This document shows, one piece after another, positions 6,649-61,751 of a stretch of 64,000 bases of DNA; within the stretch, counting starts at the first letter, position 1; each line of letters opens with the position of its first letter. The stretch comes from Rhodothermales bacterium (GTDB lineage: Bacteria > Bacteroidota > Rhodothermia > Rhodothermales > Bin80): contig OZ244148.1 of the NCBI GenBank assembly GCA_965216255.1, forward strand, positions 710,623 to 774,622. The letters are read 5' to 3'. A program made the position numbers and the translations under genes. The notes below the pieces were generated by a model. The model searched no databases. It saw only the letters and a program-made list of their open reading frames with translations, and was not told the DNA's origin.

Positions 6649-7462
6649 CTAATTCTTTGTAGAGCACGCGATGTCCAACCAGCTTGCCTTTACGTGCAGC
6701 ATTTGAGCCACCGTTTCTAGCGGGCGCATGTTGTGCTTGCCCGCAAACTGCGCCACGTACCTGTGCAGGTGCTGCTTGTCGAATTGGTGATACGTGCCAT
6801 GATAAACCCGCTTCAACATAACCCTAGCGGATTCCGCTCTTTCGTTGTGCGCCACGCCGGTGACGTATTCGCTGCCGCTGTGTCTAACAGTTCCAGACTT
6901 CATTCCGTTCATATCCCCGTAGGCTACCGCTTCGTCCGCGTCCACGATCCACCCGCATCCAGCTGTGCATGTTCCTCTCCAAGCCACCCACGTAGGTCTC
7001 CTCAACCGCGGTTGGGCCTGCACACAGCGGGGGCAACCTGCATTCAGTTCCTCGCGAATAAACTGTAACATGAACCAAGCTGTCACTCAAGGCACACCAA
7101 GTTCGCAGTGCAGTTTCATGCTGGACACGCTTTTGGAATGGTGGATTCGAAATAAATGGCCCAACCCCAAATTCGTCAAGGCAAATTAATAGATTCGATT
7201 GCCGTGCCGGTCTTGGCGCTGCAGTACTTCTTGCATGCATGGCATCGGTACTGCATTGTTTCCCGGTTGACCTCATAACACGTCCAAATTGCCGCAACGC
7301 ACGCAGGTGCACCCACTCGCGGAACATTACGACAACATCAATCCACTTGCGGGTCGCCGCCTCGTCTGGCATCATGTCTACCAACTCCATAATTGTGATA
7401 CCCTTGTAGAGTGATCGTCGTACTCTAGTCATTTTATTCCCCGATCTCGGATGGTTACGCAA
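6649..7462 (-). mobile_element. Degenerate IS1595/ISXO2-like transposase pseudogene
   Basis: Two overlapping frames (6884..7462 and 6649..7086). The C-terminal piece GVAHNERAESARVMLKRVYHGTYHQFDKQHLHRYVAQFAGKHNMRP matches the ISXO2-like transposase tail (HTN.IE.FW..LKR...G.YH....KHL..Y..EF..R.N.R). It is frameshifted and much too short. Confidence 0.6.
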
Positions 7463-7491
7463 ATCATGCGAATCATTAGCCTAAATGCCAA

Positions 7492-8862: not shown

Positions 8863-8922
8863 AATGCCTAGTACTTGTACTGTACCCCTAACGTTGCACA
8901 GAATTGCGATCAACTCAAGAAA

Positions 8923-9226
8923 TTAAGGCCGCCTGGTCATGGGTAATAGCGGGACAAGACTGTCCCAATGGGCATGGGTTGGCATTGTGGTTGAAGTCAT
9001 TGTCTTGTTGGTCTCCGGCAGACCTGCATAGACGGCATATGGTATGCGGTACTGCAGTCCCTGGTGGGGATGCTGGTGGATGTAGAATGCAAAGTACGCC
9101 TCCAAACGCTGCCGTGCCTTTGGCAGGGTCGTGTATTCGTAGAGATAGACCTCCTCATACCCCGCGCTGCGCCAGAGACGCTCGATCATGATGTTGTCGT
9201 AGCACCGGCCGCGGCCGCCAATCGAT
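8923..9226 (-). mobile_element. IS3-family transposase 3' remnant (rve C-terminal part), fused in frame to the truncated TonB receptor copy
   Basis: The chimeric ORF 8923..10344 switches at nt 9226/9227 from receptor sequence (...SLVKGGASRLI) to GGRGRCYDNIMIERLWRSAGYEEVYLYEYTTLPKARQRLEAYFAFYIHQHPHQGLQYRIPYAVY. That is the conserved IS3/IS150-type integrase-core tail. Confidence 0.8.
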
Positions 9227-41781: not shown

Positions 41782-43949
41782 CCCAAGTTTACCATTGTGC
41801 TTCATAACAGGTTGTAAAGTAGAGACTTGAAAATTGTTCTGGCACAACAAATGGCCACCAAGTGAGGTTTTATGCCTTAGGTCATATGATCGTCTTGTGC
41901 ATGGCCAAGGGCAGTGGATCGATGCACAAGGCATCGTAAATGGCCCTTAGTTCCATATCCGGCTGCGAGCTGGTGCGGACATGGAGTGTGCGTGCGTCCT
42001 TGCGCTCGAAGATGCTGGTCGTGCGAACCTGACGCCGAAGGATCCTCCTGAGTGTCGTCCAGCTGAAGCGTAGTCCTTTCTGGCGCAGACGCGTACGAAT
42101 CACCTGCACCAACTGGTAAGCCAGGACCGTGATGAATAGATGGCCCTCCGCGCGCCGGCCTGTGGAATGGTAGATCGGTCGCAGTCCGAGTTCCGACTTC
42201 AGGGACCGGAACACCGCTTCCAGATCGGTCAGCATCACATACGTGCGCCAGAGCTCTTCCGCGGTGAACTCCATCTCGTTGCTGCGCAGGCAATAGACGC
42301 CCGGATCGGTCATTATCGTGCCCGCTTTCGGCGTCTTTGTCCACGTGATAGACTGGGCCCGCTTGCCGTCCTCATCCGTCTCCACTTCTATCTCGTAATG
42401 CTGTCCGATGCCGCTGAAGCTCTGCTTCAATCGGCCGATACGTTCCCTTATGAGGTCGATGCGCTTTTGCGTCTTCGGCAGGGCAAGCCCCTCGGAAAGC
42501 TTGCCGAGGGCCTCCTCGAATCTTTCCGCTTTCTGCTTCACCTTGGCCTCTTCCATCGCCATGCGGGACCGGGATCGGCAACAGAGCCGTACCTCGTCGT
42601 CTGCCTCCTCCCGGTACACCTCGACGTCACTGCCCGAGGCCGTCTGAAGAGCCTCGGCCTGCTGCTCATCAAAATGCTTCCTGCGCTCTCTTGATACCAC
42701 GATGTAGCGGTAGCCCTCCTCTCGCAGCCAGTCTATGCGGTCCTGTGTGGCAATGCCCCGATCCATCACCACACGTGCGTTCTTGGGCGTCTCCAGGGAC
42801 TCCAGCATCTCCTTGAGCGTGGACGCTTCGTTTACGTTGCCCTTGAAGACTTGGCTACGACGCACGAACCCGCTGCCGTCCACTACAAGAGCCAGCGTGA
42901 GCAGCACGCAGTCACTGCGACGCTCCTTCGAGCGTCCGTACTTGGCCTTGTCGATGCTCTTGCCACTGCCTTCCAGGAAGCTGTTGGTCAGATCATAGAG
43001 CGCGATCGTGGGCTCCAGATCAAACAGGTCCAGCGCCCGTGCAAAGAGGTGGTCCTCTATGGCCTTGCGGTGTTTGTGCAGCATGTCGCTGGCCCGGTAC
43101 AGCTGCATGTCGGCCATCTTCTGGAAGTTGCAGCCCAGAAACTCGTCCAGGCCACTGGCAGAGGCCAGCCAACGCTTCGTGGCATGTTCGCTGGCCGGCT
43201 CGGCCAGACGGCCTATGATGGAGCCCGTGGCTGCATGCCGGAGGCCTCGTGTGATGCCAAGCTTCTCGAAGAGCTCATCCATGCCCAACTGCTCCATGGC
43301 CCAGAGCCCCACATGTTCTACACCCACCGTGCGGGGCCGGACCGTTTTGAGCGAGTGGACATCCACATGGTGCCATTCGCGCGGCGGCGTCTCGCCCTTG
43401 CCCTCGGTCACGGCTACCGCCTTGCGCGCACTCAAAAGTTCTGCAATGCGGTGGGCCTCCTCTTCCACAACGGCAGGAACGCCCATGGGTACGAGTTCGA
43501 GCTGGCCCTTGAGCAGTGCCTCAATCCGGTTGCAGAGCGCACGCCAGTAGCGTTTGTCGATGCGGAAGTGGGCACCGAGATTGAGCAGGGTCTTCTGCCG
43601 GACCTTGCCCTCTATGCGTTCGCCGTGGCAGAGCCGAAAGGAATAGTAGCGTGTAGCGTTGTCGGTGGTATGGGTAAGCGATCGTCGGATATACATAGGG
43701 GGAAGATAGGGCTGGAAACCGTTGCCCGCAATAGGTATCAATATTTTATGGCACAACATTCGTATTTCAGTTTCTGTGAATTTCAAAAATGGTGCGTTGG
43801 TGGGATCTTGTGGGGCTCTGGTGGGGCCAAGCACCATAAATTCCGGTAAAACAGGCCTAAAGTGGGGGCTCATCCCTAAAAATCTCTCGAAATAAATAAC
43901 TGCGATTATTGCCGACCTTCAAATTCAGCCGCCAAATGGTAAAGATGGG
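41782..43949 (-). mobile_element. IS1634-like insertion sequence, copy 2, 2168 bp (diverged from copy 1)
   Basis: Ends are CCCAAGTTTACCATT (41782-) and AATGGTAAAGATGGG (-43949). A 4-bp direct repeat CAAA lies at 41778-41781 and 43950-43953. Confidence 0.8.
41882..43696 (-). CDS. IS1634-family DDE transposase
   Basis: Track ORF 41882..43873; the probable start is MYIRRSLTHTT.. at 43696. By eye roughly 80-85% identical in protein to the copy at 23485. Confidence 0.85.
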   Translation of the reverse strand: MYIRRSLTHTTDNATRYYSFRLCHGERIEGKVRQKTLLNLGAHFRIDKRYWRALCNRIEALLKGQLELVPMGVPAVVEEEAHRIAELLSARKAVAVTEGKGETPPREWHHVDVHSLKTVRPRTVGVEHVGLWAMEQLGMDELFEKLGITRGLRHAATGSIIGRLAEPASEHATKRWLASASGLDEFLGCNFQKMADMQLYRASDMLHKHRKAIEDHLFARALDLFDLEPTIALYDLTNSFLEGSGKSIDKAKYGRSKERRSDCVLLTLALVVDGSGFVRRSQVFKGNVNEASTLKEMLESLETPKNARVVMDRGIATQDRIDWLREEGYRYIVVSRERRKHFDEQQAEALQTASGSDVEVYREEADDEVRLCCRSRSRMAMEEAKVKQKAERFEEALGKLSEGLALPKTQKRIDLIRERIGRLKQSFSGIGQHYEIEVETDEDGKRAQSITWTKTPKAGTIMTDPGVYCLRSNEMEFTAEELWRTYVMLTDLEAVFRSLKSELGLRPIYHSTGRRAEGHLFITVLAYQLVQVIRTRLRQKGLRFSWTTLRRILRRQVRTTSIFERKDARTLHVRTSSQPDMELRAIYDALCIDPLPLAMHKTII

Positions 43950-44031
43950 CAAAGGGCAAACAGGCACCCTCCGCGCGTGCGCGGCGTATATTCCATGCTG
44001 TCCTCCAGAGCCGCTGCCCCCCTTGCACCGA

Positions 44032-47000
44032 ATGCGCCTGCAGCATGCATCCTTCTGCCATCTCCGAATGAGAGACCCTCCATCGGCATACGGACCCGGG
44101 GGCATCCTGTCCTTCACCAGGACGGCCCTTCTTTTGGTTGTAGCCATCATGGCGCCGGCGGCCCTGGCGCAGCAGGAGCCGGCGTTCGAGCCCGGCGTGG
44201 TCGTGGTCCAGTTCGATCCCGGCACCGCCACCCTGGAAGGGGCCGCCAAGACGGGACTGGCCGCCTTTGACCGCGCGGCGTCCCCGTTCGGGGTCACCTC
44301 CATCGAGCGTCCCTTTGCGTTCCTGGACCATGTGGAGCCCAAGCCGGAGACCGAGCGCAACCTGATGGCGTTGCGCCGCACCTACTACGTGCGCTACAGC
44401 GCGGACGAGGAGCCGCTGACTGTCGCGCGGACGCTCGCCCGCGCCGAGGGCGTCACCTATGCCGAACCGCTGCTGGTCAATCGCTTCCTAGGGCCCATGG
44501 CCCTGCCCGATGATTCGCTCTTCGGCGAACAGACGTATCTCGGGCACCTGCGCCTGCCCGAGGCCTGGGACGTCGTCCGGGCGGGCAGCACCCGCGGGGA
44601 AGAGGGCATGAGCGCCCCGCCCGTGGTGATCGCTATCGTGGACGGTGGCGGCGACTGGCGCCACGAGGACCTTGTCTCCAACGTGTGGACCAATCCCGGC
44701 GAGATACCCGGCAATGGCAGGGATGACGACGTGAACGGCTTCCGGGACGACGTGCATGGCGTCAACCTGGCCAACGAGGACGACAGCGACAACGACCCGA
44801 CGGGGCTGCCCCAGACGCCCATCAGCGCGTGGCACGGCACGGCCGTGGCGGGCGCCGCAAGCGCGGCCACCGACAACGGCATCGGCATTGCCGGCGCGGC
44901 ATGGAATGCCAAGGTGATGCACGTCAACGTGGGCTGCCCCGACCGGGAAACCGTCTGCCACGGCTACAGGGGCATCCTGTACGCCGCTTCCAACGGCGCC
45001 GATGTCATCAACGTCAGCTGGTCCGGGTCGCCGAGCCGCGAGCAGGAACTGAAGATGGTCACGGAAGCGCTGGACTTCGCCACCGCCCACGGCGCCCTGG
45101 TCGTGGCCGCGGCCGGCAACGGGGCAGAGGACATGGGCACGCGGTTCTTTCCCTCGTATCCGGCGGCCCATCCGCGCGTGTTGTCCGTGGGGGCGACGGA
45201 GCGCGATACGCGCCTGCTGGCGGCCTTCTCCAACTACGGCAAAGAGGTAAACGTCTATGCGCCCGGCGAAGGCATCGTCACGACGGCGCCGGATGACGGC
45301 TACAGCCGGTCGTTGGAGGGCACCTCCTTTGCGGCGCCCCTGGTAAGCGGCGTGGCCGCCCTCGTGAAGACCCGCTTTCCCCACCTGTCGGTGGACGCGC
45401 TGCGAGAGAAGGTGCGGCTGGCAAGCGACAACATGGATGCGGACAACCCGGGCCATGCCGGACGCCTCGGAATCGGCTTCGTCAATGCCGAAACAGCCGT
45501 GCAGCGGCACGCGCGTCCCGGCGTGCGCGTAACGGACTGGTCGTGGCAGGAGGCAAACGGCGACAGCGTGATCGCCCCCGGCGAAGAGGTCACCATCACG
45601 GCCACCGTCACCAATCACCTGGCGGATGCGGAGCAGCTCAGCATAGGGCTCTCGGCGTCCCGGCCGTACCCGTACTTGGACCTGTCACGGTCCGAACACG
45701 CCGTCGGTTACCTGGCAAGCGGCGCCTCCCGGACCGTCCGCCTGCGGTTTTCCGTCGGCGCGGACCCGCCCGCCAACGAGCGCATACGGCTCTTTGCGCA
45801 CGTCACGCACGGTGCGTTCACCGATGAAGTCGACTACTTCACGCTGGCCATAAACCGGCGGCTCGACATCGTGCACGAGGCGCTGAGCGCACTGTATTTG
45901 GCTACCGACGGTGATACCTGGAAGTACAATTACGACTGGGACATCACCAGAGTGCCTACGCTGAGCGAACTGGGCAGATGGAGAGGAGTCACGGTAAGGG
46001 ATGGATGGCTGATTACGCTCAATTTGGAAAACAATAACCTGGCGGGGACGCTGCCGCTCGAACTGGGACACCTCACAGAAATCCAACAGCTGCGGCTTGG
46101 TTTCAATTTCAATGCACTAACAGGGCCCATACCCGCTGAGCTCGGTCAGCTCACCCAGTTACGGATGCTGTTGCTGGAAAGCAATGCCCTGACAGGAAAG
46201 ATCCCGAAGGAACTGGGCAACCTCTCGCAGTTGCGATGGCTGTTTCTGTCCCATAATAATCTTTCCGGGGAGATTCCCGCCGAACTGGGAAACCTCTCGC
46301 GGCTGAGGTGGCTGCACCTCCACGGGAACAACCTTTCCGGAGAGATTCCCACCGAATTCGGAAACCTCTTACGGCTGGAAGTGCTGGCGCTGGGACAGAA
46401 CAATCTGTCCGGACCCATACCGCCCGAACTCGGAAACCTCTCGCGACTGAGATCACTGGGACTCTTCTCCTTGACCAATCTGTCCGGACCCATACCGCCC
46501 GAACTGGGAAACCTCGCACAGCTGAAACGGCTGTATCTGCACGAGAATGAGCTTTCGGGGCCCATTCCCGCCGAACTGGGAAACCTCTCGCGACTGGAAC
46601 TGCTGAGCCTGTATGAGACCAATCTGTCCGGACCCATACCGCCCGAACTGGGGCAACTCGCACAGCTGCGAGAGCTGCTGCTGTCAAAGAACAACATCTC
46701 GGGGTCTATACCAAAGGAACTCGGCCGCCTGGCAAAGCTGCGCATCTTGTGGCTGTGGGATAATGCCCTGTCGGGGCCCATACCGCCCGAACTGGGAAAC
46801 CTCTCTGAGCTGGGGTGGCTGAGGCTACAGTACAACGAGCTGTCCGGGCCCATTCCTCCCGAACTGGGACGGCTCGCGCGGCTGCGGGCGTTGACTGCGT
46901 TTGACAACGAGCTGTCCGGGCCCATTCCTCCCGAACTCGGAAACTTGCCTGAACTGCAGGAGCTGGCTCTGCAAAGCAACAATCTGTCCGGGCCCATTCC

Positions 47001-48288
47001 TCCCGAACTCGGAAAACTCGCTCAACTGGAACGCCTGAGACTGGAAAGCAACAATCTGTCGGGGCCCATACCTCCCGAACTCGGAAAACTCGCTCAGCTG
47101 AAAAGCCTGACGCTGCAAAGCAACAATCTGTCCGGGCCTATTCCCGCCGAACTCGGAAACCTCGCTCATCTGAGCTGGGTGGAGATGTACGAGAACGGCC
47201 TGTCGGGGCCCATTCCGCCCGAACTCGGAAAACTCTCCGAACTGCGACGGCTGAAACTGGGACACAACGAGCTGTCGGGGGCCATACCCGCCGAACTGGG
47301 ACAGCTCGTAAATCTGCAGAATCTGTCCCTGGCGGACAATGCGCTGTCGGGGGCCATACCTCCTGAACTGGGAAACCTCGCAAAGCTGGAACACCTGAGA
47401 CTGGAAAGCAACAATCTGTCGGGGGCCATACCTCCTGAACTGGGAAACCTCGCAAAGCTGCAAGTGCTGAGCCTGAAAAACAATGCGCTGTCCGGACCCG
47501 TACCGCCTGAACTGGGGAACCTCTCCGAGCTGGTATGGCTGGCTCTGAACGGCAATGAGCTTACCGGCAAGCTGCCCAGAAGCCTCATGCAGCTGACAAA
47601 CCTGAACGGATTACACTTTCACGGCCAAGCCCTTTGCGCCCCGCAGGACGAGGCGTTCCAGGCGTGGCTTCGCGGCAAGACGGACGTGGACAGCCCCACC
47701 TGCACGGGCGTGTACTTCGCAGAGGACATCCCGGACCAGAGTTTCACCCGCGACGAGGCCGTCGCGCCGCTGGTTTTTCCCGAGGCAGCCGGTGGCAGCG
47801 AACCCTATGCCTACAGCCTGAGGCCCACGCTGCCGGCGGGACTTATCTTCGACGACTCAACCCGCACCATCAGTGGCACGCCCACCGAACTGCTGGCCAG
47901 GACCGCGTACACCTACGCCGCCACCGATGCCGACGGCCTCGCGGACAGCCTCACCTTTGCCATCGAAGTCCTCTCGCCCTTGCACATCCTCGGCGCAGGG
48001 GACATCCCCTCCGAATTCGCCGTGCACGGCAACCATCCCAATCCCTTCCGCCATGTCACCCGCCTGGCATTCGACCTGCCCTGGCCTGCCCGGGTAACGG
48101 TGGAAGTGCTGGACCTGACGGGCAGGCGCGTGCTCATGCTGCCGGAAGAAGCCCTTGCCGCGGGGCGGAGCAGGACGATCGAGGTGACCGGATCCGCCCT
48201 CTCCTCGGGGCTGTATTTCTACCGCCTCGTCGCAGCATCGCCCAAAGGCACGTCGGTGCACGCAGGGCGCTTCGTACGCGTCCGGTAA
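44032..48288 (+). CDS. Secreted subtilisin-like (S8) serine protease fused to ~20 plant-type LRRs, a He_PIG-like Ig domain and a T9SS C-terminal sorting domain
   Basis: The track start 43909 lies inside the IS. ATG 44032 or 44068 precedes the signal peptide ALLLVVAIMAPAALAQQ. Catalytic motifs: VIAIVDGGGDW (Asp), WHGTAVAGAASA (His), EGTSFAAPLVSGVAAL (Ser). LRRs of type LxxLxxLxLxxNxLSGPIPPELGNL span about 45990-47620. Then YAYSLRPTLPAGLIFDDSTRTISGTP. CTD: FAVHGNHPNPFRHVTRLAFDLP...GLYFYRLVA. Confidence 0.9.
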   Translation: MRLQHASFCHLRMRDPPSAYGPGGILSFTRTALLLVVAIMAPAALAQQEPAFEPGVVVVQFDPGTATLEGAAKTGLAAFDRAASPFGVTSIERPFAFLDHVEPKPETERNLMALRRTYYVRYSADEEPLTVARTLARAEGVTYAEPLLVNRFLGPMALPDDSLFGEQTYLGHLRLPEAWDVVRAGSTRGEEGMSAPPVVIAIVDGGGDWRHEDLVSNVWTNPGEIPGNGRDDDVNGFRDDVHGVNLANEDDSDNDPTGLPQTPISAWHGTAVAGAASAATDNGIGIAGAAWNAKVMHVNVGCPDRETVCHGYRGILYAASNGADVINVSWSGSPSREQELKMVTEALDFATAHGALVVAAAGNGAEDMGTRFFPSYPAAHPRVLSVGATERDTRLLAAFSNYGKEVNVYAPGEGIVTTAPDDGYSRSLEGTSFAAPLVSGVAALVKTRFPHLSVDALREKVRLASDNMDADNPGHAGRLGIGFVNAETAVQRHARPGVRVTDWSWQEANGDSVIAPGEEVTITATVTNHLADAEQLSIGLSASRPYPYLDLSRSEHAVGYLASGASRTVRLRFSVGADPPANERIRLFAHVTHGAFTDEVDYFTLAINRRLDIVHEALSALYLATDGDTWKYNYDWDITRVPTLSELGRWRGVTVRDGWLITLNLENNNLAGTLPLELGHLTEIQQLRLGFNFNALTGPIPAELGQLTQLRMLLLESNALTGKIPKELGNLSQLRWLFLSHNNLSGEIPAELGNLSRLRWLHLHGNNLSGEIPTEFGNLLRLEVLALGQNNLSGPIPPELGNLSRLRSLGLFSLTNLSGPIPPELGNLAQLKRLYLHENELSGPIPAELGNLSRLELLSLYETNLSGPIPPELGQLAQLRELLLSKNNISGSIPKELGRLAKLRILWLWDNALSGPIPPELGNLSELGWLRLQYNELSGPIPPELGRLARLRALTAFDNELSGPIPPELGNLPELQELALQSNNLSGPIPPELGKLAQLERLRLESNNLSGPIPPELGKLAQLKSLTLQSNNLSGPIPAELGNLAHLSWVEMYENGLSGPIPPELGKLSELRRLKLGHNELSGAIPAELGQLVNLQNLSLADNALSGAIPPELGNLAKLEHLRLESNNLSGAIPPELGNLAKLQVLSLKNNALSGPVPPELGNLSELVWLALNGNELTGKLPRSLMQLTNLNGLHFHGQALCAPQDEAFQAWLRGKTDVDSPTCTGVYFAEDIPDQSFTRDEAVAPLVFPEAAGGSEPYAYSLRPTLPAGLIFDDSTRTISGTPTELLARTAYTYAATDADGLADSLTFAIEVLSPLHILGAGDIPSEFAVHGNHPNPFRHVTRLAFDLPWPARVTVEVLDLTGRRVLMLPEEALAAGRSRTIEVTGSALSSGLYFYRLVAASPKGTSVHAGRFVRVR

Positions 48289-48301
48289 GGCGATCGGGAT
48301 A

Positions 48302-48325
48302 GGTGGGGGCCTCACGGCCCCCACC
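48302..48325 (+). terminator. 10-bp GC hairpin GGTGGGGGCC-TCAC-GGCCCCCACC 14 nt after the protease-LRR stop (no U-tract)
   Basis: Read directly. Confidence 0.4.
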
Positions 48326-48399
48326 CCCCCACACCACCGTGCGTACGGGTCCGTACACGGCGGTTCAATGGACTTGAGCAAACCGACTTGGGTGCCAGG

Positions 48400-48893
48400 G
48401 CCACCAGGCCGCTACGTGCCGGGAGTTCGGATTCGGGTTGCGCCGTGCAAACTTCGGTCCCTTCCCCACGGGCACCGCCGGATTCACCGGGGCTGTCCCA
48501 CGCAAAAGGCAGCGTTAGCTGGATTTTCTGCCGCATTGCTCGCATGAGCTTGCCGTCCTACTACCCCTGTCCATTGTTCGGGCCTTCGTCGGCTAAGCCG
48601 ACTACTATGCCCTGGTATAGTAGGATACTATTTCAAGTGAAGATTACATGAAGAGTTTTGGCTTGACCTCTGGAGAAGCGACCGGGCGGCTTCGACGGCT
48701 AATCAATCTGGTATTCGCGTGCTAAGCCCCGAAGGACCATAACGCATGATTTCGGTTTCGACGGGAGCTGCCACTATCTCTGAACGCGCGCTCACCAGCA
48801 AGAGAGCTGGCTATCGCAAGGGCATATCGTGGGTTCTCCTTACCGTGCCCGATCGCTTCTCCATAGGCCATTTCTTTGGTTACAAGATACGAG
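48400..48893 (-). mobile_element. Group II intron 5' fragment (ribozyme domains upstream of, and the first ~40 codons of, the intron-encoded protein)
   Basis: Minus ORF 48312..48545 begins MRAMRQKIQLTLPFAWDSPGESGGARGEGTEVCTAQPESE. The pattern QL.L.F....GE....GEGTE....ES is the N-terminus I associate with bacterial group II intron RT/maturases. The RT domain itself is absent. The extent is approximate. Confidence 0.4.
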
Positions 48894-50033
48894 TCAGGCG
48901 GCCTTCGGCAACGGCGAGCCCGTGTGCATACGCAACGCCTCCCAGAGAAAGCCCACCAGTTCACGCGCCACCGCCGTGTTGGCCACGCATCGCGACTTCG
49001 TCTGACTCAGTTTGCGGAATCTCTTGTACAGCCGGCACTGGGCCTTCCATGCCAGTAGAACGACCGCGGCCGAGACGCCCTGCTGCCGTTCGCGTAGCAC
49101 TTTACTGCACCGCGGCGGGACTGCATACTTCCATGCTGTAGATACCAGTGCCTTCCGCACGTGCGTATTACCCGTCTTCGTGATGGAACCGCGTTGCGTG
49201 TGATCTGCCGAGCTGTACTCGCTCGGCACCAGACCCAGAAATGCCATCAACTGGCGCGGATGCGCGAAGCGACGGATATCTCCCAACTCGCACACCAGCG
49301 TCATGGCCGTCACAAAGCCTATGCCCCGGAAGGCCATCAGCACCCCCACGGGCTCTCTGTAGCGGTCCTTTTCGGCCTCCTCTGCCAGTTGCTGTTCCAG
49401 TCTGTGCACTTCCTGCTCCACATACGTCAGATTGTGCAGATACGTCTGCAGCGTGACCTGGTCCACCGCCCTTGCCGGCAAGGCACGAATCCACTTCCAA
49501 TGGGCCTTCGTCCAGTTTGTGGCACCGGTGTACTGAAAGCCCCTGGTCTGAATGAAAGACAGGATCCGCTGCTTGGTGCGCGTGATAGACTCCACCAGGT
49601 CAGCGCGGCAGCGCAAAAGGGACCGGGCTGCTTCCTGCTCCTCTTCCGGTACGCACACCGGCGTCAGTAGCCCTTTGGCATACAACGTGGCCAGCTTCAT
49701 CGCATCCCGTCGATCAGTCTTGATACGCTCGCCCGGTCGACGCGGAATGGATGAGGGGGCGATCACGTCGCAGTGCACGCCCTGCACCTGCAGCGCACGC
49801 TGCAGGCCGAATCCGCAGGACGACGCTTCGTAGCAGCAACGAACCTCGCCGTAGCGCCTCTGTAACTTCTGCACATACGTGCGGATTCTCGGCATGTCGT
49901 GCGGCAACTGCCGCTCGTCAATTACCTCGCCCGTGCTGTCGTCGTACACGCAAAGCGCAATGGTCTTCTTGTGCACGTCCATGCCGACAACCAGCGAGGA
50001 GGCCGAAGTGAATGTTGGGGTGTATCTTTGCAT
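48894..50033 (-). CDS. IS110-family (DEDD) transposase
   Basis: 379 aa with VVGMDVHKKTIALCV, IKTDRRDAMKLA and LVPSEYSSADHTQRGSITKTGNTHVRKAL. The element ends are not determined. Confidence 0.9.
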   Translation of the reverse strand: MQRYTPTFTSASSLVVGMDVHKKTIALCVYDDSTGEVIDERQLPHDMPRIRTYVQKLQRRYGEVRCCYEASSCGFGLQRALQVQGVHCDVIAPSSIPRRPGERIKTDRRDAMKLATLYAKGLLTPVCVPEEEQEAARSLLRCRADLVESITRTKQRILSFIQTRGFQYTGATNWTKAHWKWIRALPARAVDQVTLQTYLHNLTYVEQEVHRLEQQLAEEAEKDRYREPVGVLMAFRGIGFVTAMTLVCELGDIRRFAHPRQLMAFLGLVPSEYSSADHTQRGSITKTGNTHVRKALVSTAWKYAVPPRCSKVLRERQQGVSAAVVLLAWKAQCRLYKRFRKLSQTKSRCVANTAVARELVGFLWEALRMHTGSPLPKAA

Positions 50034-50221
50034 GAGGCTGTTCCGGTTTGGGTGAATGTGGTGAACGAGCTAATGTAGCTCGCCCAGCCGGAGCAGTCCT
50101 ACTATAAGATCTCTGCTGACTTCTGCGTTGCGGTCACGTGCCTTACGACACGTTCAGTCCGGCTTGGCCGGACACAACGCAGATCTCCCAGGGTAAGACC
50201 AACCGCCTTCCCCGCACACCT
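50034..50221 (-). ncRNA. Structured 5' leader of the IS110 transposase, candidate bridge/guide RNA region (speculative)
   Basis: The minus strand reads ...GAGATCTGCGTTG[TGTCCGGCCAAGCCGGACT...]CAACGCAGAAGTCAGCAGAGATCT... It has nested complementary arms (CTGCGTTG/CAACGCAG, TCCGGC/GCCGGA, AGATCT twice). No covariance model was run. Confidence 0.2.
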
Positions 50222-50683
50222 GCCGAATCTACCACCCCGACGCATAGATGACGCGGACTTTGCGATAACCGGCTCGCTCGTCCGATCGGGTAGGCCTCGT
50301 ATTCGGTTCTTGTTCATCAGGTCGCGGGTTTGCTACACGCTTCCTTCAGACCCCGCCTCACGACGACGCCCTTGCGCTTCGCTAATCCTTCGCCGCCATC
50401 TGGCTGGATAGAGGACTTGCACCTCCAAGCTGTTGATCATGCCTGGCACACCGGCAGGTCCGCTTCTCGCGGCCTTCGTCGCACTGGGATGCGTCCGGAC
50501 GTGATTTACCCCGCCAGGTGGGCATTTCAGGGGCGTTGTTTTGGCCGCTTGCGCTGCATTCCGGTCCGATTTTGTCACTTATGGGCGGTTTCAGGCGCAT
50601 GTGTGCGGCCGCCCGCACACATAGGCGCCCCTGCCGGACCCGGCCCTCTCCGGCCCTCTGCACATACGCAGCAGCCGCGTGAA

Positions 50684-50709
50684 TGCAACATAAAGATCAG
50701 TATGTTGCA
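50684..50709. repeat. Hairpin TGCAACATA-N8-TATGTTGCA, copy 1 of a repeated motif
   Basis: The same stem recurs at 58933-58958. Loosely similar GC-rich sequence (CCCCTGCC..CCGG..CCGGCC) precedes both copies. Confidence 0.6.
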
Positions 50710-51041
50710 TTGGCCCAAAGGCGCTGATTACAGGTGAAGCGAATTGGGCTCAGTGCGGCGCCTTTCTATCCCGATCAACAGCCCGGTGGTAAGCTGCTCC
50801 GCCGTACCACTGCCTAGGCCACTCCCCGGCCAGCAGTCACGTCTCATTCGACACAGCCAAGGTAGCCAGCACCCTGTACTTCACCGGACGGATACCTTCT
50901 ACTTGGTACTCTAGATGAAGGTGGCTTGGCAGGATAGAGGCGGATTGATACCTTACGGGCTTGATTCGCTCACTTACGGGTCACTGGAGGCTTATCGTCC
51001 CGAGTATCCAGAACCGTCATTGCCCAGTTGTAGATGTTGGT

Positions 51042-53639
51042 ATGGCAGCGATTAATGTCCTTGATGAAATCCTGATGTGGTCATCAGACCGCCCAATTTG
51101 GCAAAGAGATGCCTTGCGGCGATTGGTCGAGAAAGGCGAATTAGACGAAACAGACATCAATGAACTAACGAACCTCTGCAAATCCCACCACGGCCTACGT
51201 AGCAGAATACCGGCTGCCCCACTTAGTAGCCACCACCTTCCCCAGCCTGGCACTGAGGCAAAACCCGTATCTCTTGTGTCGCTCACACACCATACTGGCG
51301 TCAACGCGCTAGCACAGCATCAGAAGGTTGAATTTGGACCCCAGTTGACGATCGTATATGGCGGTAACGCTGCAGGTAAATCCGGTTACACCCGCATATT
51401 AAAGCGCGTGTGCCGGGCACGCGGCGCCGAAGAGATCCTTGGGAACGTCATGGCTGGATCTGCACCGGGACGACCCTCTGCGACCATCGAGTTTAAAGTG
51501 GATGGCAAGGTAAAGCCATATCAGTGGGATGACCGTCAGCGCCCTGATGCATTCCTTTCAAAAATAAGTGTCTTTGATCGCCATTGTGCGAGCGTGTATC
51601 TAGCAGAGCCGACGGATGTCGCGTTTCGTCCCTTGGGTCTCGACCTGTTTGACAAGCTGGCCGATGCCTGCGGAGAGGTCAGGAGATCCCTGGAGGAAGA
51701 GCGGAGCGCGCTTGAGGCACAGAAACTGCAGTTCCCTAGTGCTACTGCAGGGACGGCCGTCCACGAGTTGGTCACAAGCCTAACTTCACTGACCAAACCG
51801 GCATTAGTCACATCTCTAGCTTCCTTAACCGACGCTGACAAGGCACGCGCGGTGGAGTTGCTGAGAAGGATTCGCGATTTGCAATCGGATAATCCTGAAA
51901 AGACTGCGCGGACACTTGAGCTCCGTGCTGATCGCGTGAATGTATTGATAAACCACTTCAATGCTGCTGACGAGGTGTTGTCTGATGCGGCGATTCAGGG
52001 TCTGTTCAACGCACACGAACTAATGCATGAAGCTATGCGTGCAGCAGAGAATCTGCATCGGACCACTTTCCACAAGCAACCTCTGAAGCTTACCGGGTCC
52101 AACGTGTGGCGCACACTGTGGAATGCCGCGGCACGATTCTCGACAGAAGCCGCGTATCCGGAGCATCCTTTTCCGTTCACCGGAGACAAATCACGCTGCG
52201 TTCTGTGTCAGCAGATACTCGACACAGAAGGCGCAGAGCGATTGCAGCAGTTCCAAGAGTTCTTCCAAACCGACGTTCAGGCTGATTACGACAGGAAGAC
52301 GAAGGACTACGACACGAAGTTTGTACGGGTCGGTACCCTGGCGGATTTGGGAAGGTCAGGAGAGAAAGTGTTCGAGGAGATCCGGCTTGACGACCCAGAT
52401 CTTGCCAAAGCAGTCAGAACTTGTTTGGACGCAGCGAAGGCACGTAAAGAGAGCGTAACGGGGGCGCTGACCAACGGCCTATCATGTCCCGAGGAGCTAC
52501 CCGAATGGGTGCCCAACATAGAAGGCCTGACGCGTCACATTGAGGCACTGAAGGCTCGGGCTAATGAGCTTCGCGGATCGAATCGACCAGAGGTCGTAAG
52601 CACACTGAAACGCGAGTTAAACGAACTGGAGGCGCGACAACTGCTTGCAGATCATCTGAGCGATGTTCTTGGAGAAATTGAGCGAAAGAAAAGAATCGCT
52701 GCCTACCAGTTATGCATCGCCGACACACGGACGAATGCCATTACGATCAAGAGCAGCGATGTCACAACACGTGCAGTCACACAGCAACTCACCTCAAGCT
52801 TTGAGGAGGAGCTAACCAGAGTAGAGTTCCATCATGTTGAGGTCCAAATGGTGGCCGCTGGTGGAGCTCGTGGCGTGCTTCGTCACAAATTGCAGTTCCG
52901 GCGGGCACCAGGGACAGATGTTGTCAAGGTCGTAAGCGATGGCGAAGCCCGATGCCTTTCAATTGCATCGTTCTTCGCAGAACTCAGCACTGCCGCAGAG
53001 CAGTCAGCCATTCTCTTTGATGACCCGGTCTCGTCTCTTGATCATATGTGGCGCAGAAAAATAGCGGAGCGGTTAGCGGACGAAGCAAAGAATCGGCAAG
53101 TCATTGTCTTCACACACGACATTTATTTCCTTCATACCCTCACAAAGAAGGGGAAAGTAAGTGGTATCGAAGTTAAGCATCAGTATTTGCGCAGAGACGG
53201 TGTCAGCTCGGGGTTATGCTCTGAGAAACTGCCTTGGGTTGCATCAAAGGTCAGAACACGAATTGGTTACCTGAAAGACCAATGGCAGGCTGCGGATGCA
53301 GCGTTTCGAAATGAGGGAAGAGAGCACTATGAAATGCGTGCCTCATACATATACGGGCTCCTTCGCGAAGCTTGGGAACGGGGCGTTGAAGAGGTGCTCC
53401 TAGGAGGGCTGATTGAGCGCTACGATCCTTCTGTTCAGACAAAGCGCGCAAGATATCTTACAGACATCTGTGATGATGACATTACTGCACTCGAGGCAGG
53501 TATGAACAAGTGCTCGCAGTGGTTACCGGGCCATGACAGCCCCCGCGCTGATAGCGGTCCACTTCCGAATCCGGAAGAACTACTACGAGATATTGAGGGG
53601 CTCGAAAAATGGGTCGCCGAGCTTCGACCGCGTCGTTAG
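51042..53639 (+). CDS. Stand-alone AAA_13-type ABC/Rad50-like ATPase with coiled-coil CxxC zinc hook and unassigned N- and C-terminal domains (RloC/PrrC-like)
   Basis: The track start is TTG 50961; ATG 51042 (MAAINVLDEIL..) is more plausible. Walker A YGGNAAGKSG. A long helical insert contains CVLC at 52196-52207. Signature-like VSDGEARCLSIASFFAEL. Walker B AILFDDPVSSLD. H-loop VIVFTHD. A ~180-aa tail includes LLREAWER and WLPGHDS. Confidence 0.8.
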   Translation: MAAINVLDEILMWSSDRPIWQRDALRRLVEKGELDETDINELTNLCKSHHGLRSRIPAAPLSSHHLPQPGTEAKPVSLVSLTHHTGVNALAQHQKVEFGPQLTIVYGGNAAGKSGYTRILKRVCRARGAEEILGNVMAGSAPGRPSATIEFKVDGKVKPYQWDDRQRPDAFLSKISVFDRHCASVYLAEPTDVAFRPLGLDLFDKLADACGEVRRSLEEERSALEAQKLQFPSATAGTAVHELVTSLTSLTKPALVTSLASLTDADKARAVELLRRIRDLQSDNPEKTARTLELRADRVNVLINHFNAADEVLSDAAIQGLFNAHELMHEAMRAAENLHRTTFHKQPLKLTGSNVWRTLWNAAARFSTEAAYPEHPFPFTGDKSRCVLCQQILDTEGAERLQQFQEFFQTDVQADYDRKTKDYDTKFVRVGTLADLGRSGEKVFEEIRLDDPDLAKAVRTCLDAAKARKESVTGALTNGLSCPEELPEWVPNIEGLTRHIEALKARANELRGSNRPEVVSTLKRELNELEARQLLADHLSDVLGEIERKKRIAAYQLCIADTRTNAITIKSSDVTTRAVTQQLTSSFEEELTRVEFHHVEVQMVAAGGARGVLRHKLQFRRAPGTDVVKVVSDGEARCLSIASFFAELSTAAEQSAILFDDPVSSLDHMWRRKIAERLADEAKNRQVIVFTHDIYFLHTLTKKGKVSGIEVKHQYLRRDGVSSGLCSEKLPWVASKVRTRIGYLKDQWQAADAAFRNEGREHYEMRASYIYGLLREAWERGVEEVLLGGLIERYDPSVQTKRARYLTDICDDDITALEAGMNKCSQWLPGHDSPRADSGPLPNPEELLRDIEGLEKWVAELRPRR

Positions 53640-53820
53640 CGTGCGAGTTGGGAGATATCCGTCGCGTTGCGCATCCGCCGCACGCTCCATGGCCGCTACG
53701 ACCGTCGACCAGGTGCAACAGGTGCTCCAGGAATCCCCCGGGTGGCCTCCTCAAATGCATCTTCCTAAAGATTCGTTAATTAAATGTAACGAATTCTTGA
53801 AGTGCCCCGCCCCTACCCGA

Positions 53821-53848
53821 AAAACCCGCCCCCCCCCAGACGGGTTTT
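53821..53848. terminator. Bidirectional-looking terminator AAAACCCG-(C9AGA)-CGGGTTTT between the ATPase gene and the recombinase
   Basis: Arms at 53821-53828 and 53841-53848, with A-tract and T-tract flanks. It ends 3 nt before the recombinase ATG. Confidence 0.45.
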
Positions 53849-53851
53849 GCC

Positions 53852-54769
53852 ATGAATCCAGACCCTGAAACGACCCTCACCCCGCCTTCCTCGCCGGAAG
53901 TGGCGCAATCCCCCGTACAACGCGACGTCTCCGACGCCACGCGCGAGGCTTTGCTTTCCGCCCGCGCCGCGGAAACGCGCAGGATCTACGCCATGCACGT
54001 CCGCGCCTTCGGCGCGTGGCTCGAAGACGATGCGCTCCTTGCCACGCCCATCGATGTGGCCAACTACCTGGCCGGCCCGGGCGCCGAAAGAAGCCACAGC
54101 TGGCGCCTGCAGGCATCGGCCGCCACAACGGGCGCCTTCGAGGAGGCAGGCTTTGCCTCGCCCGCTGCGCATGCTGGCGTGCGCCGCACCCTGAAAGGCC
54201 TCCTGAGGCAGAAGCCGCGCGCTCCGCACCGGGCCGCGCCGCTGACGGAAGCCGTCATTGCCGCCATAGAGGCCACGGCCAAAAGCCGCGGGCAACTGGA
54301 CATCGCCCTCATCCGCGTCATGCGCGATGCGCTTCTTCGCCGCAGCGAGGCGGCAGCGCTTGCGGGGCAAGACGTCAGCGTGGAGCCGGACGGCAGCGGA
54401 AGGCTGAGGCTCACCATGCCGACCAAGACGGACTAGGAGGCCGCCGAGCCGCACACGGCCTATCTTACGCGCGCCACGGTGGCCGCGCTTACGCGCCTGT
54501 GGACGCCGTATCACACTCCCGACATGCCGCTCTTCGGGCTCTGCGCACGCCAGATAGCGTATACGGGCTGCTGCTCGTGCGGCCGGCCTCATCGACAAGT
54601 ATTCCGGGCACAGCGGCCGCACGGGAGCGGCCCACAGCCTGGCAGAGCGCGGAGCAAGTCTTGTGGAATTGCAGCAGGCCGGGCGCTGGAAGTCCCATCC
54701 ATGCCGGCTACCTACGCTCGCAGCGCAAGGGCCGGACAAAATGCCGCGGCCAGGCTGCTGGAGACGTAG
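53852..54769 (+). pseudogene. Tyrosine recombinase/integrase, inactivated by one in-frame TAG and two compensating frameshifts
   Basis: N-terminal SAM-like domain (TRRIYAMHVRAFGAWLED...). ...TMPTKTD*EAAEP has TAG at 54434-54436, where SKTDQEG is usual. The catalytic block AAARAAGLIDKYSGHSGRTGAAHSLAERGASLVELQQAGRWKS is readable only in another frame. The original frame then resumes with PSMPATYARSARAGQNAAARLLE. Confidence 0.8.
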
Positions 54770-55072
54770 CAAGGGCCTGGCTTGTGTCTGAACCGGCTGT
54801 CTGGCGCTCGATTGCGTGCAAATGTTCGTGATGCCCTGAAGTGCGTCCAGGTCGAGTTCGGCTACAAGCCCTGGCAGGTGGCCGTTCTGATTTCCTGCCT
54901 TCCCCACTCCCTTGACCGCAAGCACCTTGAAGGGCCCGAAAGGGGGTTGCTCTCCGGCCAGGGTGCGCGCCATGTCAGTGTCAGTGCGGCACACAGGTAA
55001 TCAGAGAGGATGTTGCCACTGCACTTCGCGCTGTAACGGATTCGGAGAACCTTCCTGCTAATCGTAGCAGCG

Positions 55073-55630
55073 TCAAGGCTGCCGGAAATCCACCAGACAC
55101 GGTTGTCGTTTAACGTACCGCAACTGGCCGGTCAACGCTTCGATCGGCAAAATCGCCAACGGAATCAGCACCGGAGCCAAGACGTGGAATCCGCTTGGAT
55201 CTTCTCCTTCGCCCGGAAATGCACTGCCGACGATGATTGCATACGAGTACAAAGCCCCGATGGGTATCAGCAAGATATCTCCGATCAAGGGCAGCCAATT
55301 TGTCCGTGACTTCAGAAAACAAGATTCCAGCTGGTCGCCGTACCGAACGGTTATCGTGTGCGACTGGCGATGGCTGACCCGAACGGTGACGGGCGTCTTG
55401 CCAACCGGTTCACCGTTCAGGAATACGTCCGCGCTGTATACGTTGGACGCGACGCGGATGGATTGCTTTACGGGTGGTGTGAGCAAGGTGCCACAACCCG
55501 CTTCAACGACCAGGATGATCACCACGATAAAGCACCGTGTAGTCGTTGCATACAATCTGTTCCTGGCACGTACCGGTCGCGTGCATCTTTCCATGGGACG
55601 GTTTGGGATACGCTTCAACTCGCTTTCCAA
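55073..55630 (-). CDS. PEGA-domain membrane/lipoprotein
   Basis: 185 aa. CFIVVIILVVEAGCG, then VASNVYSADVFLNGEPVGKTPVTVRVSHRQSHTITV (PEGA motif), then two C-terminal hydrophobic helices. Confidence 0.7.
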   Translation of the reverse strand: MESELKRIPNRPMERCTRPVRARNRLYATTTRCFIVVIILVVEAGCGTLLTPPVKQSIRVASNVYSADVFLNGEPVGKTPVTVRVSHRQSHTITVRYGDQLESCFLKSRTNWLPLIGDILLIPIGALYSYAIIVGSAFPGEGEDPSGFHVLAPVLIPLAILPIEALTGQLRYVKRQPCLVDFRQP

Positions 55631-59310: not shown

Positions 59311-61073
59311 TGAAATCTTAAAGAAACAATCGGTTATATCTTGCCATTTGCGGTGAATCTGAGGGACGTATAGCCAATTTGGGCCTTTAAGAGCGCAAAA
59401 CAGCTCGCATTCGCCAGGGAAACCATGCGCAAGATTGTCCCAGAGTACCGTGCACTCGACAGTACGCCGATCAAAGAGATTGCCATAAACCCGAGAATGC
59501 GCGGCGACATGGGAGCGGTGCTCAAGGGTCTGCGGTGCGTCTACTGCACGGCGGAATCCCGTGCGGCCTTGTTCACGATTCTGGAGGCGCACTTTCAGCC
59601 GGGTACACGCAAAGATGTCGGACGACCGGGCATGGATCTATGGCGCGTCATCGTGTTTGCGATAGTCAAGCAGTGCCTGGATCTGGACTACGATGCTTTG
59701 TTGTACCGGGCCAACAACGATCTCTTGCTGCGGGAGCTCTTGGGGCACGGAGATGCCGCCTTTGACGCGGTGAAGTACAGCAGACAGCACCTGGTGGACA
59801 ACGTGCAGCTTTTGACGCCGAAGCTGGTCCGGAAGGCGATCCAATTGATAGTGCAGACAGGGCACAAGGTGGCTGGAAAAAAGTCTGGGGCCGCGCTAGC
59901 CGGTCGCTGCGATTCCAGGGTGGTTAAGACGCATGTGCACTATCCCACCGATGTGGGTCTGTACTGGGATGCGGTTCGTGGTCTAATACGTGTGAGTGCA
60001 CGCTCGGCTGCGGCATTCGCTCTTCCGGGCTGGCGCAAGCATGCGTATCGCACGCGGAAGGTATACCAGGCCTTCATCCGGGTGCGGACGGCTCCGCGCT
60101 ACCGGCAGAATCCGAAAGGAGTGCAGGCGTACTTGCGCCAGTGCACACAGACTGCAGCACGTGCCCGTACGCTGTTAAATGCCTTGGCCACGGCGCAGAA
60201 ATCGGCGGCGGCGCGAGCGGATATCGCGTATTACTTGCACTATGTGGACTTGTAGGTGGATCAGGCGTCGCATCCTCTTGGGCGAGAAGATTCCACATGC
60301 GCAGAAAGTGTTTCCCATCCACAAGCCACATACGCGTTGGATCAGCAAAGGCAAGGCGGGCGTGCTGGCCGAGCTGGGCCTTCCGGTCGCACTGGTAGAA
60401 GATGAGCACCGGTTCATTTTGGCTTATCACATCCTGTGGGACACATCAGATGTAGAGGTGGCGGTACCGATCATTGACGTGGTGCAGGCGGCTTTTCCAG
60501 AGTACAATGTGTGCAGTTTTGACCGGGGCTTTCATAGTTTGAAGAATCGAGAAGCATTGGATGCTCGGCTGGCGCTCAATGCGCTTCCGAAGAAGGGCAA
60601 GCTTTACTCTGGCGGAGCGTGCGCGGGAGCGCGCGCCTGCGTTCAAGGCAGCGCGGCAGCAGCACCCGGCCGTCGAGTCGTGTCTGGCCAATTTCGGACT
60701 TCGGGGCGGTGCGCTGGTGCGGCAGAAGAGTCCGGAGAACTTCGCGCTGATGGTGAGCCTGTCCGTGCTGGCGGTCAACGTGCACCGGCTGGGTTGCCTA
60801 GTGCGCGCCCAGGACCGGGCACGAATAAGGCGTCGGCGAAAGCGCGCGGCGTAGGCCCGCTACCACCTCGCAGAAAGGTCCCAATCGCAGGCCCCAAGGG
60901 ACACGTATGCCCTCCCGATAGGAACACAACGCCCTTCGAGCCGCAAACTGTCCGTGCGCGCACGCAAGAGACGCCAGCATGGCCGAAACACTCGAAGCGG
61001 ACCGTCAACGAACTCAAAAAACGACCGTGCCTGTGCATTCGAGGCCGAAAAAAGAGAGTATTCGGTCAATCAC
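59311..61073 (+). mobile_element. ISNCY/IS5-like element copy 2, defective
   Basis: The left ~20 bp (inverted repeat) is not conserved. The transposase has TTG->TAG at 60253-60255, a 5-bp deletion just after it and a 1-bp insertion near 60606, relative to copy 3. The right end is intact at 61073. Confidence 0.85.
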
Positions 61074-61751
61074 TACTTGGCACGTGCAAGCTGATCGCGG
61101 TAGGCCCCGGGTTTCCCCGGGACCCCCGCACAGATCCGGACGTGCCCGTTAAGGCATCCGGCTCCTCCCTCAGGTCGCGCCGCCGCGCATGACGTTAATG
61201 GGTCGGCTAACCAACCCATAGCCGTAACCGGTCCATCCGTGTGACACACGAAGTCCGGCTCTGCGTCCGGTGTGTGTTGGATTTTCCGATTTCCCCTCGG
61301 GTGCGACGCTTCGCTCCACCAACTCCGCCACACGGTCCCCCGCGCTTTGTTCGCCGGCTTCATCGCTACTATCATCGCATCTGACTCCTCCTCGCCGTTC
61401 ATCCTCCGCTCGGCAACTGCCTTGGCTTTGGCGGCCCCGCCCTAAGCGCTGGGCAGCGAGGAGGCCTCCCAGATCCCGACCTTGTACGTACATGCGTGCG
61501 TGGGTTCTTCGACGCCGCAGAGCCCTCCCGCACCTCACCAAAGCGGTGCGAGCAGTCTTGCCTTCGACCAACGTGAGAGTCTCGGCATTCTGAATGACAA
61601 TGTTTTCGGCGCTCAATAGCCCTGCCCACATGCGCCCCTGCCGACGCTTCGCCCATCCCCTCACGAGGATGACCGCACGGCTCGGGGAATGATATGGATC
61701 GGTTACTTCCTTCATCATAGAGGACTTCCACCCCCTGTACTTGGCCAGTTA

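Follow-up and report, generated by a model that had tools for sequence, protein, structure and literature searches.

A long-form RloC-like zinc-hook ATPase of the PDC-S06 family among mobile-element debris in a Rhodothermales genome

A stretch of 64 kb from a Rhodothermales bacterium (the window; all coordinates count from its first letter) carries on its + strand an open reading frame (ORF) that encodes an RloC-like ATPase of the ATP-binding cassette (ABC) type, equipped with a zinc hook. This ORF starts at a TTG (50961) or at an ATG (51042) and ends at 53639, which gives a protein of 865 amino acids (aa) from the ATG. A preliminary description of this DNA had presented the gene as a single-gene defence ATPase lying among decayed mobile elements and displaying a possibly new combination of effector or sensor domains. 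The analysis reported here shows that it belongs, as an ordinary member, to a catalogued family of candidates, PDC-S06 of the PADLOC database, and is a long-form variant of RloC. The features of the gene and of its product are as follows (AF2, AlphaFold2).

51042..53639, + strand: RloC-like ABC/zinc-hook ATPase gene, intact, 865 aa; PADLOC PDC-S06 sub-model PDLC04891 (ORF list, PADLOC, Pfam, full-coverage homologs)
50961, + strand: in-frame alternative start TTG (ORF list)
51057..51188, + strand: three-helix N-terminal domain (aa 6-49), with a linker after it that extends to aa ~75; W13, P18, W20, A24, R26, R27 and D38 conserved (AF2, alignment)
51357..51386, + strand: Walker A motif or P-loop YGGNAAGKSG, aa 106-115; N109, G112 and K113 invariant (motif mapping, alignment)
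51639..52820, + strand: long, mostly helical insert, aa ~200-593, which splits the ABC head; presumed antiparallel coiled-coil arms (DSSP on the AF2 model, Foldseek)
52197..52208, + strand: CxxC zinc hook CVLC, aa 386-389; C386 and C389 invariant, at a non-helical apex, in a conserved block to which W356, W360 and Q391 belong (alignment, AF2)
52932..53120, + strand: C-terminal half of the ABC head, with signature (SDGE), Walker B/D-loop (FDDPVSSLD) and H-loop (FTHD) (motifs, hhalign)
53250..53633, + strand: C-terminal all-alpha domain, aa 737-864, presumed effector; R775, R793 and H831 invariant, E779, E783, E784, T800, D813, S825 and D832 near-invariant (AF2, alignment)

Architecture and conservation of the ATPase

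The ORF and every motif quoted in the preliminary description are real and in place, the only correction being a shift of 1 nt in the position given for CVLC. The second half of the head includes the ABC signature VSDGEARCLSIASFFAEL (aa 631-648), the Walker B/D-loop AILFDDPVSSLD (aa 656-667) and the H-loop VIVFTHD (aa 687-693), whereas the segments LLREAWER (aa 773-780) and WLPGHDS (aa 827-833) belong to the C-terminal domain. Conservation was assessed on an alignment of 82 diverse homologs that share 31-69% identity with the protein encoded by the window. Thirteen positions (W20, N109, G112, K113, D179, C386, C389, D660, D661, H692, R775, R793 and H831) are invariant across this set, and E779, E783, E784, T800, D813, S825 and D832 are at least 90% conserved. 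Since the key residues are invariant over such diverse homologs, the motifs listed above are not due to chance. This also holds for the Arg-X3-Glu and the His that had been picked out by eye in the C-terminal domain, as R775 and H831 are invariant and E779 is kept in 81 of the 82 homologs. The copy found in the window is full length, retains all the invariant residues of the family and looks functional as a coding sequence.

The composition of the gene (GC 53.3%, GC3 53.7%) places it among the lowest 3.6% of 2.6-kb windows, the median of the whole stretch being 61.1%. The low GC content noticed initially is thus real, but the 65-70% attributed to core genes was too high.

The full-length AF2 model (pLDDT 90.2, pTM 0.68) predicts a helical insert of about 390 aa between the two halves of the ABC head, with the CxxC at a non-helical apex. 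Foldseek comparison of this model with the PDB retrieved the heads and coiled coils of Rad50, SMC, cohesin, condensin, JetC and AriA proteins, Rad50 being the best structural match. The model also changes the limits of both terminal domains. The N-terminal domain, previously estimated at ~95 aa, is reduced to three helices (aa 6-14, 19-31 and 36-49; pLDDT ~96) and the linker that follows them. The C-terminal domain does exist, but its extent is aa ~737-864 rather than ~180 aa; its predicted helices span aa 737-757, 760-786, 800-806, 811-826 and 844-864.

Neither terminal domain could be related to a known family by direct searches. The isolated N- and C-terminal domains gave no match in Pfam at E values up to 10, nor did sequence and profile searches of the PDB return anything significant, whether the query was the whole protein, the profile of the C-domain, or the N-domain as sequence or as profile. 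In a large protein database, the C-domain profile retrieved only short fragments of the protein's own family and no other architecture, and Foldseek found no match to the C-domain in BFVD.

Membership of the PDC-S06 family and relationship with RloC

The protein matches the PADLOC PDC-S06 model PDLC04891 end to end (E 1e-225, positions 3-856 of 858), without any difference that would set it apart from a member, and also matches a second model of the same family, PDLC04893 (E 8e-175). Pfam assigns it to AAA_13 above threshold (49.3 bits versus a cut-off of 36), to SMC_N at threshold and to AAA_21, whereas whole-protein searches of NCBIfam and PHROGs gave generic sub-threshold ABC/SMC matches, far below every NCBIfam cut-off. 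The Pfam, PADLOC and structure-prediction checks proposed in the preliminary description therefore agree with its assignment of the protein to AAA_13-type, Rad50-like ABC ATPases with a zinc hook, related to RloC, which Foldseek, BLASTP and hhalign also support. The 'embedded defences' study released 145 candidates, among them PDC-S06, a single-gene candidate for phage defence.

The family is large. An exhaustive search of 1.84 billion cluster representatives yielded 2,447 clusters (50% identity) with E below 1e-30. Among the 150 best of these, most align from about residue 5 to 865 and measure 850-900 aa, the shorter proteins looking truncated. A word-indexed search gave 2,238 matches, whose lengths cluster at ~866 aa. 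One family member reaches position 644 of the AAA_13 model. The N- and C-terminal domains co-occur in essentially all full-length members. The succession of N-domain, ABC head with hook and C-domain is therefore a conserved, widespread architecture and no new fusion; the combination first regarded as possibly new occurs end to end in thousands of proteins and is already described by a PADLOC model.

The family is present on 289 plasmids, 182 of which carry full-length copies, from Proteobacteria, Firmicutes and Actinobacteria, including 111 from Klebsiella. It was found in none of 50,697 phage genomes, and a scan of species-representative genomes gave five loci only. Apparent alternative C-termini on plasmids (H59 and H61, ending at about aa 650-700) were rejected as variants, the copies being cut by IS21 or Tn3. 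One plasmid-borne member, WP_058131653.1, adjoins the tmexCD1-toprJ1 tigecycline-resistance cluster on many Klebsiella and Pseudomonas plasmids and travels with this resistance element; on the K. pneumoniae plasmid NZ_CP138774.1 (104469-123096), it lies beside tmexCD1-toprJ1, followed by two hypothetical genes and two integrases. The sub-clade of candidate defence proteins is thus abundant (more than 2,400 clusters and 289 plasmids).

The neighbourhoods of homologs are variable, mobile or defence-rich. No neighbouring gene is conserved across nine annotated loci, in agreement with the single-gene unit proposed initially. The flanks include PIN/Phd and FitA toxin-antitoxin pairs, SLFN_AlbA_2, integrases, DDE and rve transposases, AAA_15/OLD-like genes, DUF1156/DUF499/HEPN_Swt1 and helicases, while the homolog loci contain neither an Mre11/SbcD partner nor any conserved housekeeping synteny. 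Type I restriction-modification (R-M) genes adjoin two of the 14 homolog loci (L009 and L019); in L019, whose homolog is 67% identical, hsdR-hsdM-hsdS begin 98 bp downstream. As stated previously, the 64-kb window itself contains no homolog of HsdR, HsdM or HsdS. On a 16.6-kb contig (ena:ERZ21830300), a homolog lies in a dense defence island with DUF1156, an AAA_15/DUF2813 OLD-like gene with DUF3226, SLFN_AlbA_2, and HEPN_Swt1 with DUF499.

RloC has been studied by the Kaufmann laboratory using the proteins of Geobacillus kaustophilus and Acinetobacter baylyi, and its COG is named 'wobble nucleotide-excising tRNase'. Experimentally, its ATPase activates the nuclease in a DNA-dependent manner, mutations of the zinc hook short-circuit the ATPase-nuclease switch, inducers of DNA breaks activate the enzyme in vivo, and its Arg/Glu/His triad is indispensable. 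For Davidov and Kaufmann (2008), an RloC ortholog was a protein that combines ABC motifs with a CXXC and an Arg-X3-Glu-X36-52-His motif; many of the 'orthologs' in their Table S1 are 844-897 aa long and lie beside integrases, transposases or R-M genes. The protein encoded by the window displays all the elements of this working definition, i.e. the ABC motifs, a CxxC and Arg-X3-Glu...His. Its triad, R775-X3-E779-X51-H831, fits the published motif as a pattern match; within the family, the spacing is R-X3-E-X48-53-H and the three residues are found together in 81 of 82 members. As they belong to the same length class and context as the entries of Table S1 and considering the X36-52 range, long forms such as this one were presumably already counted as RloC in 2008. 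Linkage to type I or type III R-M genes concerns only eight of 72 RloC orthologs; the statement that PrrC and RloC normally sit next to type I R-M genes is hence correct for PrrC but not for RloC.

The entry #60 of Table S1 (WP_011711575.1, 746 aa, from Shewanella sp. ANA-3 plasmid 1, beside IS200/IS605 and type I R-M genes) was used as reference RloC. This protein covers the whole AAA_13 model (1-713 of 713, E 4e-178), the PADLOC PrrC model matches into its nuclease domain, and its best PADLOC match is PDC-S06 PDLC04890 (E 3e-266). As a bona fide RloC scores best as PDC-S06, the 13 PDC-S06 models are an umbrella for the RloC/AAA_13 clade, in which the protein studied here belongs to a separate sub-clade; its own place within the PDC-S06/RloC clade is almost certain. 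The 'candidate' label of PDC-S06 thus overlaps a characterised system, and an otherwise anonymous candidate is linked to a known mechanism. At the locus of the reference protein (NC_008573.1, 84001-134000), the type I R-M genes are accompanied by Qat and Abi genes.

The similarity with RloC is mainly carried by the second half of the ABC head: hhalign aligns aa 581-698 of the family with aa 460-586 of canonical RloC (probability 96.7%, E 4e-10). With a greedier setting, the two families are collinear from Walker A onwards, the significant segment being again this second half. BLASTP pairs the hook blocks, SRCVLCQQ in the protein of the window and SRCPFCQQ in the bona fide RloC. Like RloC, the protein is a single polypeptide with a Rad50-like ABC head including a DDPxSSLD Walker B/D-loop, a helical insert whose apex, a homologous block, bears an invariant CxxC (the predicted zinc hook) and a C-proximal invariant Arg-X3-Glu...His; the spacing of these landmarks corresponds to that of the G. 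kaustophilus RloC shifted by ~85-95 residues. Furthermore, the genes of both are laterally transferred, found in mobile contexts and usually devoid of an R-M partner. The family differs from RloC by an extra N-terminal domain of ~75 aa, by a C-terminal domain without profile similarity to the RloC nuclease domain and by a longer Glu-to-His spacing (48-53 versus 38-40, the sampled canonical clade having a fixed X38).

Other known systems are more distant. PrrC, the anticodon nuclease of E. coli, likewise joins an ABC ATPase to a C-terminal effector that carries an Arg-X3-Glu...His triad, but it lacks the coiled-coil/zinc-hook insert and lies within a type I R-M system, whereas the protein studied here has a long insert and no R-M genes in the window; the PADLOC PrrC model matches only its aa 616-703. 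Rad50, SbcC and SMC proteins share the head fold, the long helical insert and the CxxC hook, but the family has no Mre11/SbcD partner, possesses additional N- and C-terminal domains and shows a mobile, patchy distribution. PtuA (Septu/retron Eco7) is a defence ABC ATPase whose models resemble, weakly and in their C-terminal helical part, the N-domain of the family; however, PtuA needs a separate HNH nuclease, PtuB, and neither this locus nor the homolog loci have a gene for one next to the ATPase gene.

Terminal domains and proposed function

Considering the shared head and hook together with the invariant polar set of the C-terminal domain, the most likely function, held with a confidence that only modestly exceeds doubt, would be that of a stand-alone RloC-like candidate for defence or abortive infection, i.e. 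a DNA-sensing ATPase switch that controls a C-terminal, probably metal-independent RNase. The two Rad50-like half-heads would be joined by a long helical arm whose CxxC hook probably pairs two molecules. By analogy with RloC, head and hook would sense abnormal DNA (breaks, foreign DNA or replicating DNA), and ATP hydrolysis would switch on the C-terminal helical domain. This domain would most likely act as a metal-independent RNase using Arg775, Glu779 and His831, with Arg793 and Asp832, and might cut tRNA or other RNA, thereby halting translation and the spread of phages or plasmids. The three helices at the N-terminus probably pack at the head and serve regulation or docking. The lack of a conserved neighbour in nine annotated loci, the mobile or plasmid-borne contexts, the absence from phage genomes, the low GC content of the gene and the DNA- and ATP-dependent switch established for RloC also speak for this proposal, in which the DNA trigger, the switch, the RNase with its target and any defence phenotype are inferred.

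Several observations weigh against this proposal. The AAA_13 match of the protein is limited to the core (model positions 254-584 of 713), whereas a true RloC spans the full model, and the PADLOC PrrC and canonical PDC-S06 models end at about aa 700-720. The JGI product name 'wobble nucleotide-excising tRNase' is given to canonical relatives and never to this family. The alignment of the C-domain with RloC and PrrC nuclease domains, proposed in the preliminary description as a check of the triad, did not demonstrate homology: hhalign gave a probability of 0.1% and an E value of 0.51 for the comparison with the RloC nuclease domain (reversed control 0.68), and as good a score is reached by 113 of 150 column shuffles. 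The triad of the C-domain is thus matched as a pattern, without demonstrated homology to the anticodon-nuclease domain, and R-x3-E is also a common spacing of salt bridges in helices. In favour of the proposal, the C-domain, a predicted four-helix fold, is modelled as a confident helical bundle whose best structural neighbours appear to be HEPN domains, and its top Foldseek matches are enriched in HEPN bundles; however, none of them is significant (best E 0.07) and they are mixed with generic four-helix bundles. In addition, no Rx4-6H motif was found before His831, the preceding sequence GMNKCSQWLPGH containing no Arg 4-6 residues upstream; canonical RloC also lacks this motif. Lastly, no experimental paper on PDC-S06 was found, the papers that name it being genome surveys or a prediction study.

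The N-domain shows a resemblance to RloC of its own. Its aa 6-58 align with aa 631-694 of RloC, i.e. the first half of the nuclease domain (hhalign score 27.5, probability 57%, P 1e-4), 'WQRDALRRLV' being paired with 'IQNTMRRIIE', followed by G..D..I and a Cys; R26 and R27 face R651 and R652 of RloC. None of 150 column shuffles reaches this score (mean 10.7, maximum 18.1), reversed profiles give 11-13 (11.5-13.4), other 132-residue windows of RloC 8-17 and the family's own windows 9-15. In an independent comparison, five of ten N-domain sequences gave weak matches (E 0.002-0.03), at positions that agree with one another, to the C-terminal part of the PtuA models of PADLOC. The positions that correspond to Glu655 and His694 of RloC are variable, the HMM of canonical RloC finds no domain beyond its position 620 in family sequences and thus does not detect the N-domain similarity, and an unbiased full-length comparison gives P 0.036 for the match. 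These data point to a signal that seems real but modest, and the N-domain is probably a small helical module common to the post-ATPase regions of RloC and PtuA, without the catalytic Glu and His. For specialists of these systems, it may be useful that PDC-S06 is in effect the RloC clade and that its long form keeps the ATPase, the hook and the Arg/Glu/His set while having a divergent C-domain and an extra N-domain apparently related to the RloC nuclease core.

A bolder reading of the same resemblance is that the family is a rearranged RloC: the first half of the nuclease domain, with the helix of the catalytic Arg but without Glu and His, would have been moved to the N-terminus, and the C-terminus would carry a different four-helix domain with a new invariant Arg/Glu/His. 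As the two ends of the chain are close to each other in a Rad50-type head, these modules could meet at the ABC head and jointly form one putative catalytic or regulatory module, a composite switch or nuclease; such a split or permuted anticodon-nuclease architecture would be so far undescribed. The specificity of the alignment (only the windows holding RloC 631-694 exceed background), the pairing of the two arginines, the consistent PtuA matches and the co-occurrence of both terminal domains speak for it. Nevertheless, the hhalign probability of only about 57%, the full-length P value, the silence of the canonical HMM above position 620 and the loss of conservation at the Glu655 and His694 counterparts make this reading distinctly improbable. 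That the C-domain is no nuclease at all, and that the protein is an SMC/Rad50-like DNA-sensing ATPase which binds or bridges DNA and either serves plasmid exclusion or stability or recruits an effector encoded elsewhere, is unlikely as well, although it would agree with the lack of a significant nuclease fold or family match, with the frequency of the family on conjugative plasmids and with the use of separate effector proteins by the related ABC ATPases PtuA, AriA, LmuB and JetC. Against it, no neighbouring gene is conserved in nine annotated loci, and a small helical domain with such a set of invariant polar residues (R775, E779, R793, H831 and D832) has the typical make-up of an active site.

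The RloC-like switch would also have to be expressed from this locus, which is uncertain because the upstream region, up to ~50.8 kb, has been replaced by group II intron and IS110 debris and because a sigma-70-like scan found no promoter-like site in 50000-55200; both points likewise count against the proposed function in this host. The gene could accordingly be imagined as a silent relic, intact in its coding sequence but stranded without its own promoter or a former partner. An IS110 remnant at its stop codon, the dead recombinase that follows and the hsdR-hsdM-hsdS genes found just downstream of the 67% identical homolog would suit such a scenario. However, the ORF has its full length and lacks none of the residues that are invariant in the family, and the scan says little since Bacteroidota-like hosts do not use the sigma-70 consensus, so that a relic seems highly unlikely. 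The weakest case is that of a housekeeping DNA-repair ATPase of the RecN, SbcC or RecF kind, which could be suspected from a sub-threshold NCBIfam RecF match (34 bits versus a cut-off of 172), from SMC_N at threshold and from the structural proximity of Rad50. This explanation, which has next to no chance of being correct, was rejected on context and scores: the distribution is patchy, the neighbourhoods are variable and devoid of SbcD/Mre11, the gene is of low GC content, the family is borne by plasmids, and the protein scores far below every NCBIfam cut-off.

Mobile elements and other features of the window

The decayed mobile setting described initially is correct, as debris of insertion sequences (IS), of a group II intron and of a dead recombinase lies on both sides of the ATPase gene. 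It consists of the following features.

48293..48365, - strand: group II intron domain V/VI piece (Rfam RF00029, E 2.5e-7)
48894..50033, - strand: IS110-family transposase ORF, 379 aa (Pfam DEDD_Tnp_IS110 and Transposase_20; 44% identity to annotated plasmid IS110 transposases)
50198..50367, - strand: group II intron D1-D4 fragment (Rfam RF02001, E 2e-29)
53624..53677, + strand: remnant (18 aa, STASLACELGDIRRVAHP) of another IS110-type transposase gene, which overlaps the final codons and the stop of the ATPase gene (forms inverted repeat I1 with 49256-49309; by tblastn 67% identical to aa 242-259 of the transposase)
53852..54800, + strand: decayed tyrosine recombinase with an in-frame TAG and a frameshift (three-frame translation; stitched product matches Pfam Phage_integrase, E 2e-7)

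Upstream of the gene, Pfam thus bears out the IS110 transposase, whereas the stretch taken for a solo IS66 end is the D1-D4 fragment of a group II intron. Perfect 11-bp inverted termini, GATCGGGATAG and CTATCCCGATC, are found at 48292-48302 and 50766-50776. Between them (48292-50776, - strand), the transposase ORF sits between the intron pieces, at the usual place of the reverse transcriptase (RT) of the intron. This region is likely an IS110 copy nested in an RT-less group II intron; no paper linking IS110 with a group II intron was found among those searched.

Downstream, the IS110 remnant marks an IS-related breakpoint exactly at the 3' end of the ATPase gene. A terminator had been reported after the gene, but the terminator scan called none there on the + strand, the only hairpin visible 3' of the gene being a weak one, AAAACCCG...CGGGTTTT, at ~53820-53848. 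The dead tyrosine recombinase is real and carries the TAG and at least one frameshift, two having been announced. As the ATPase gene sits in such a mobile-element graveyard, its original downstream neighbour could have been lost.

No tRNA gene was found in the window. Further downstream (59425-63318), a transposase-like ORF is present in two copies, one intact (61885-63318, 477 aa) and the other split by a frameshift (59425-60255 and 60179-61192); another D1-D4 fragment of a group II intron (61503-61728, RF02005, E 4e-46), without any RT ORF, lies between them. On the other side, 43909-48288 (+ strand) encodes a protein of 1,459 aa that includes an S8 subtilase, a long array of leucine-rich repeats and a He_PIG Ig domain, with a weak match to the Por/T9SS secretion tail below the Pfam cut-off, which suggests a host of Bacteroidota-like type; the 3' end of the intron described above lies 5 bp past the stop codon of this gene. 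A second low-GC stretch, lower than the ATPase gene (48.5-54% versus ~61% for the window), spans positions 6001-9000 and may have been acquired.

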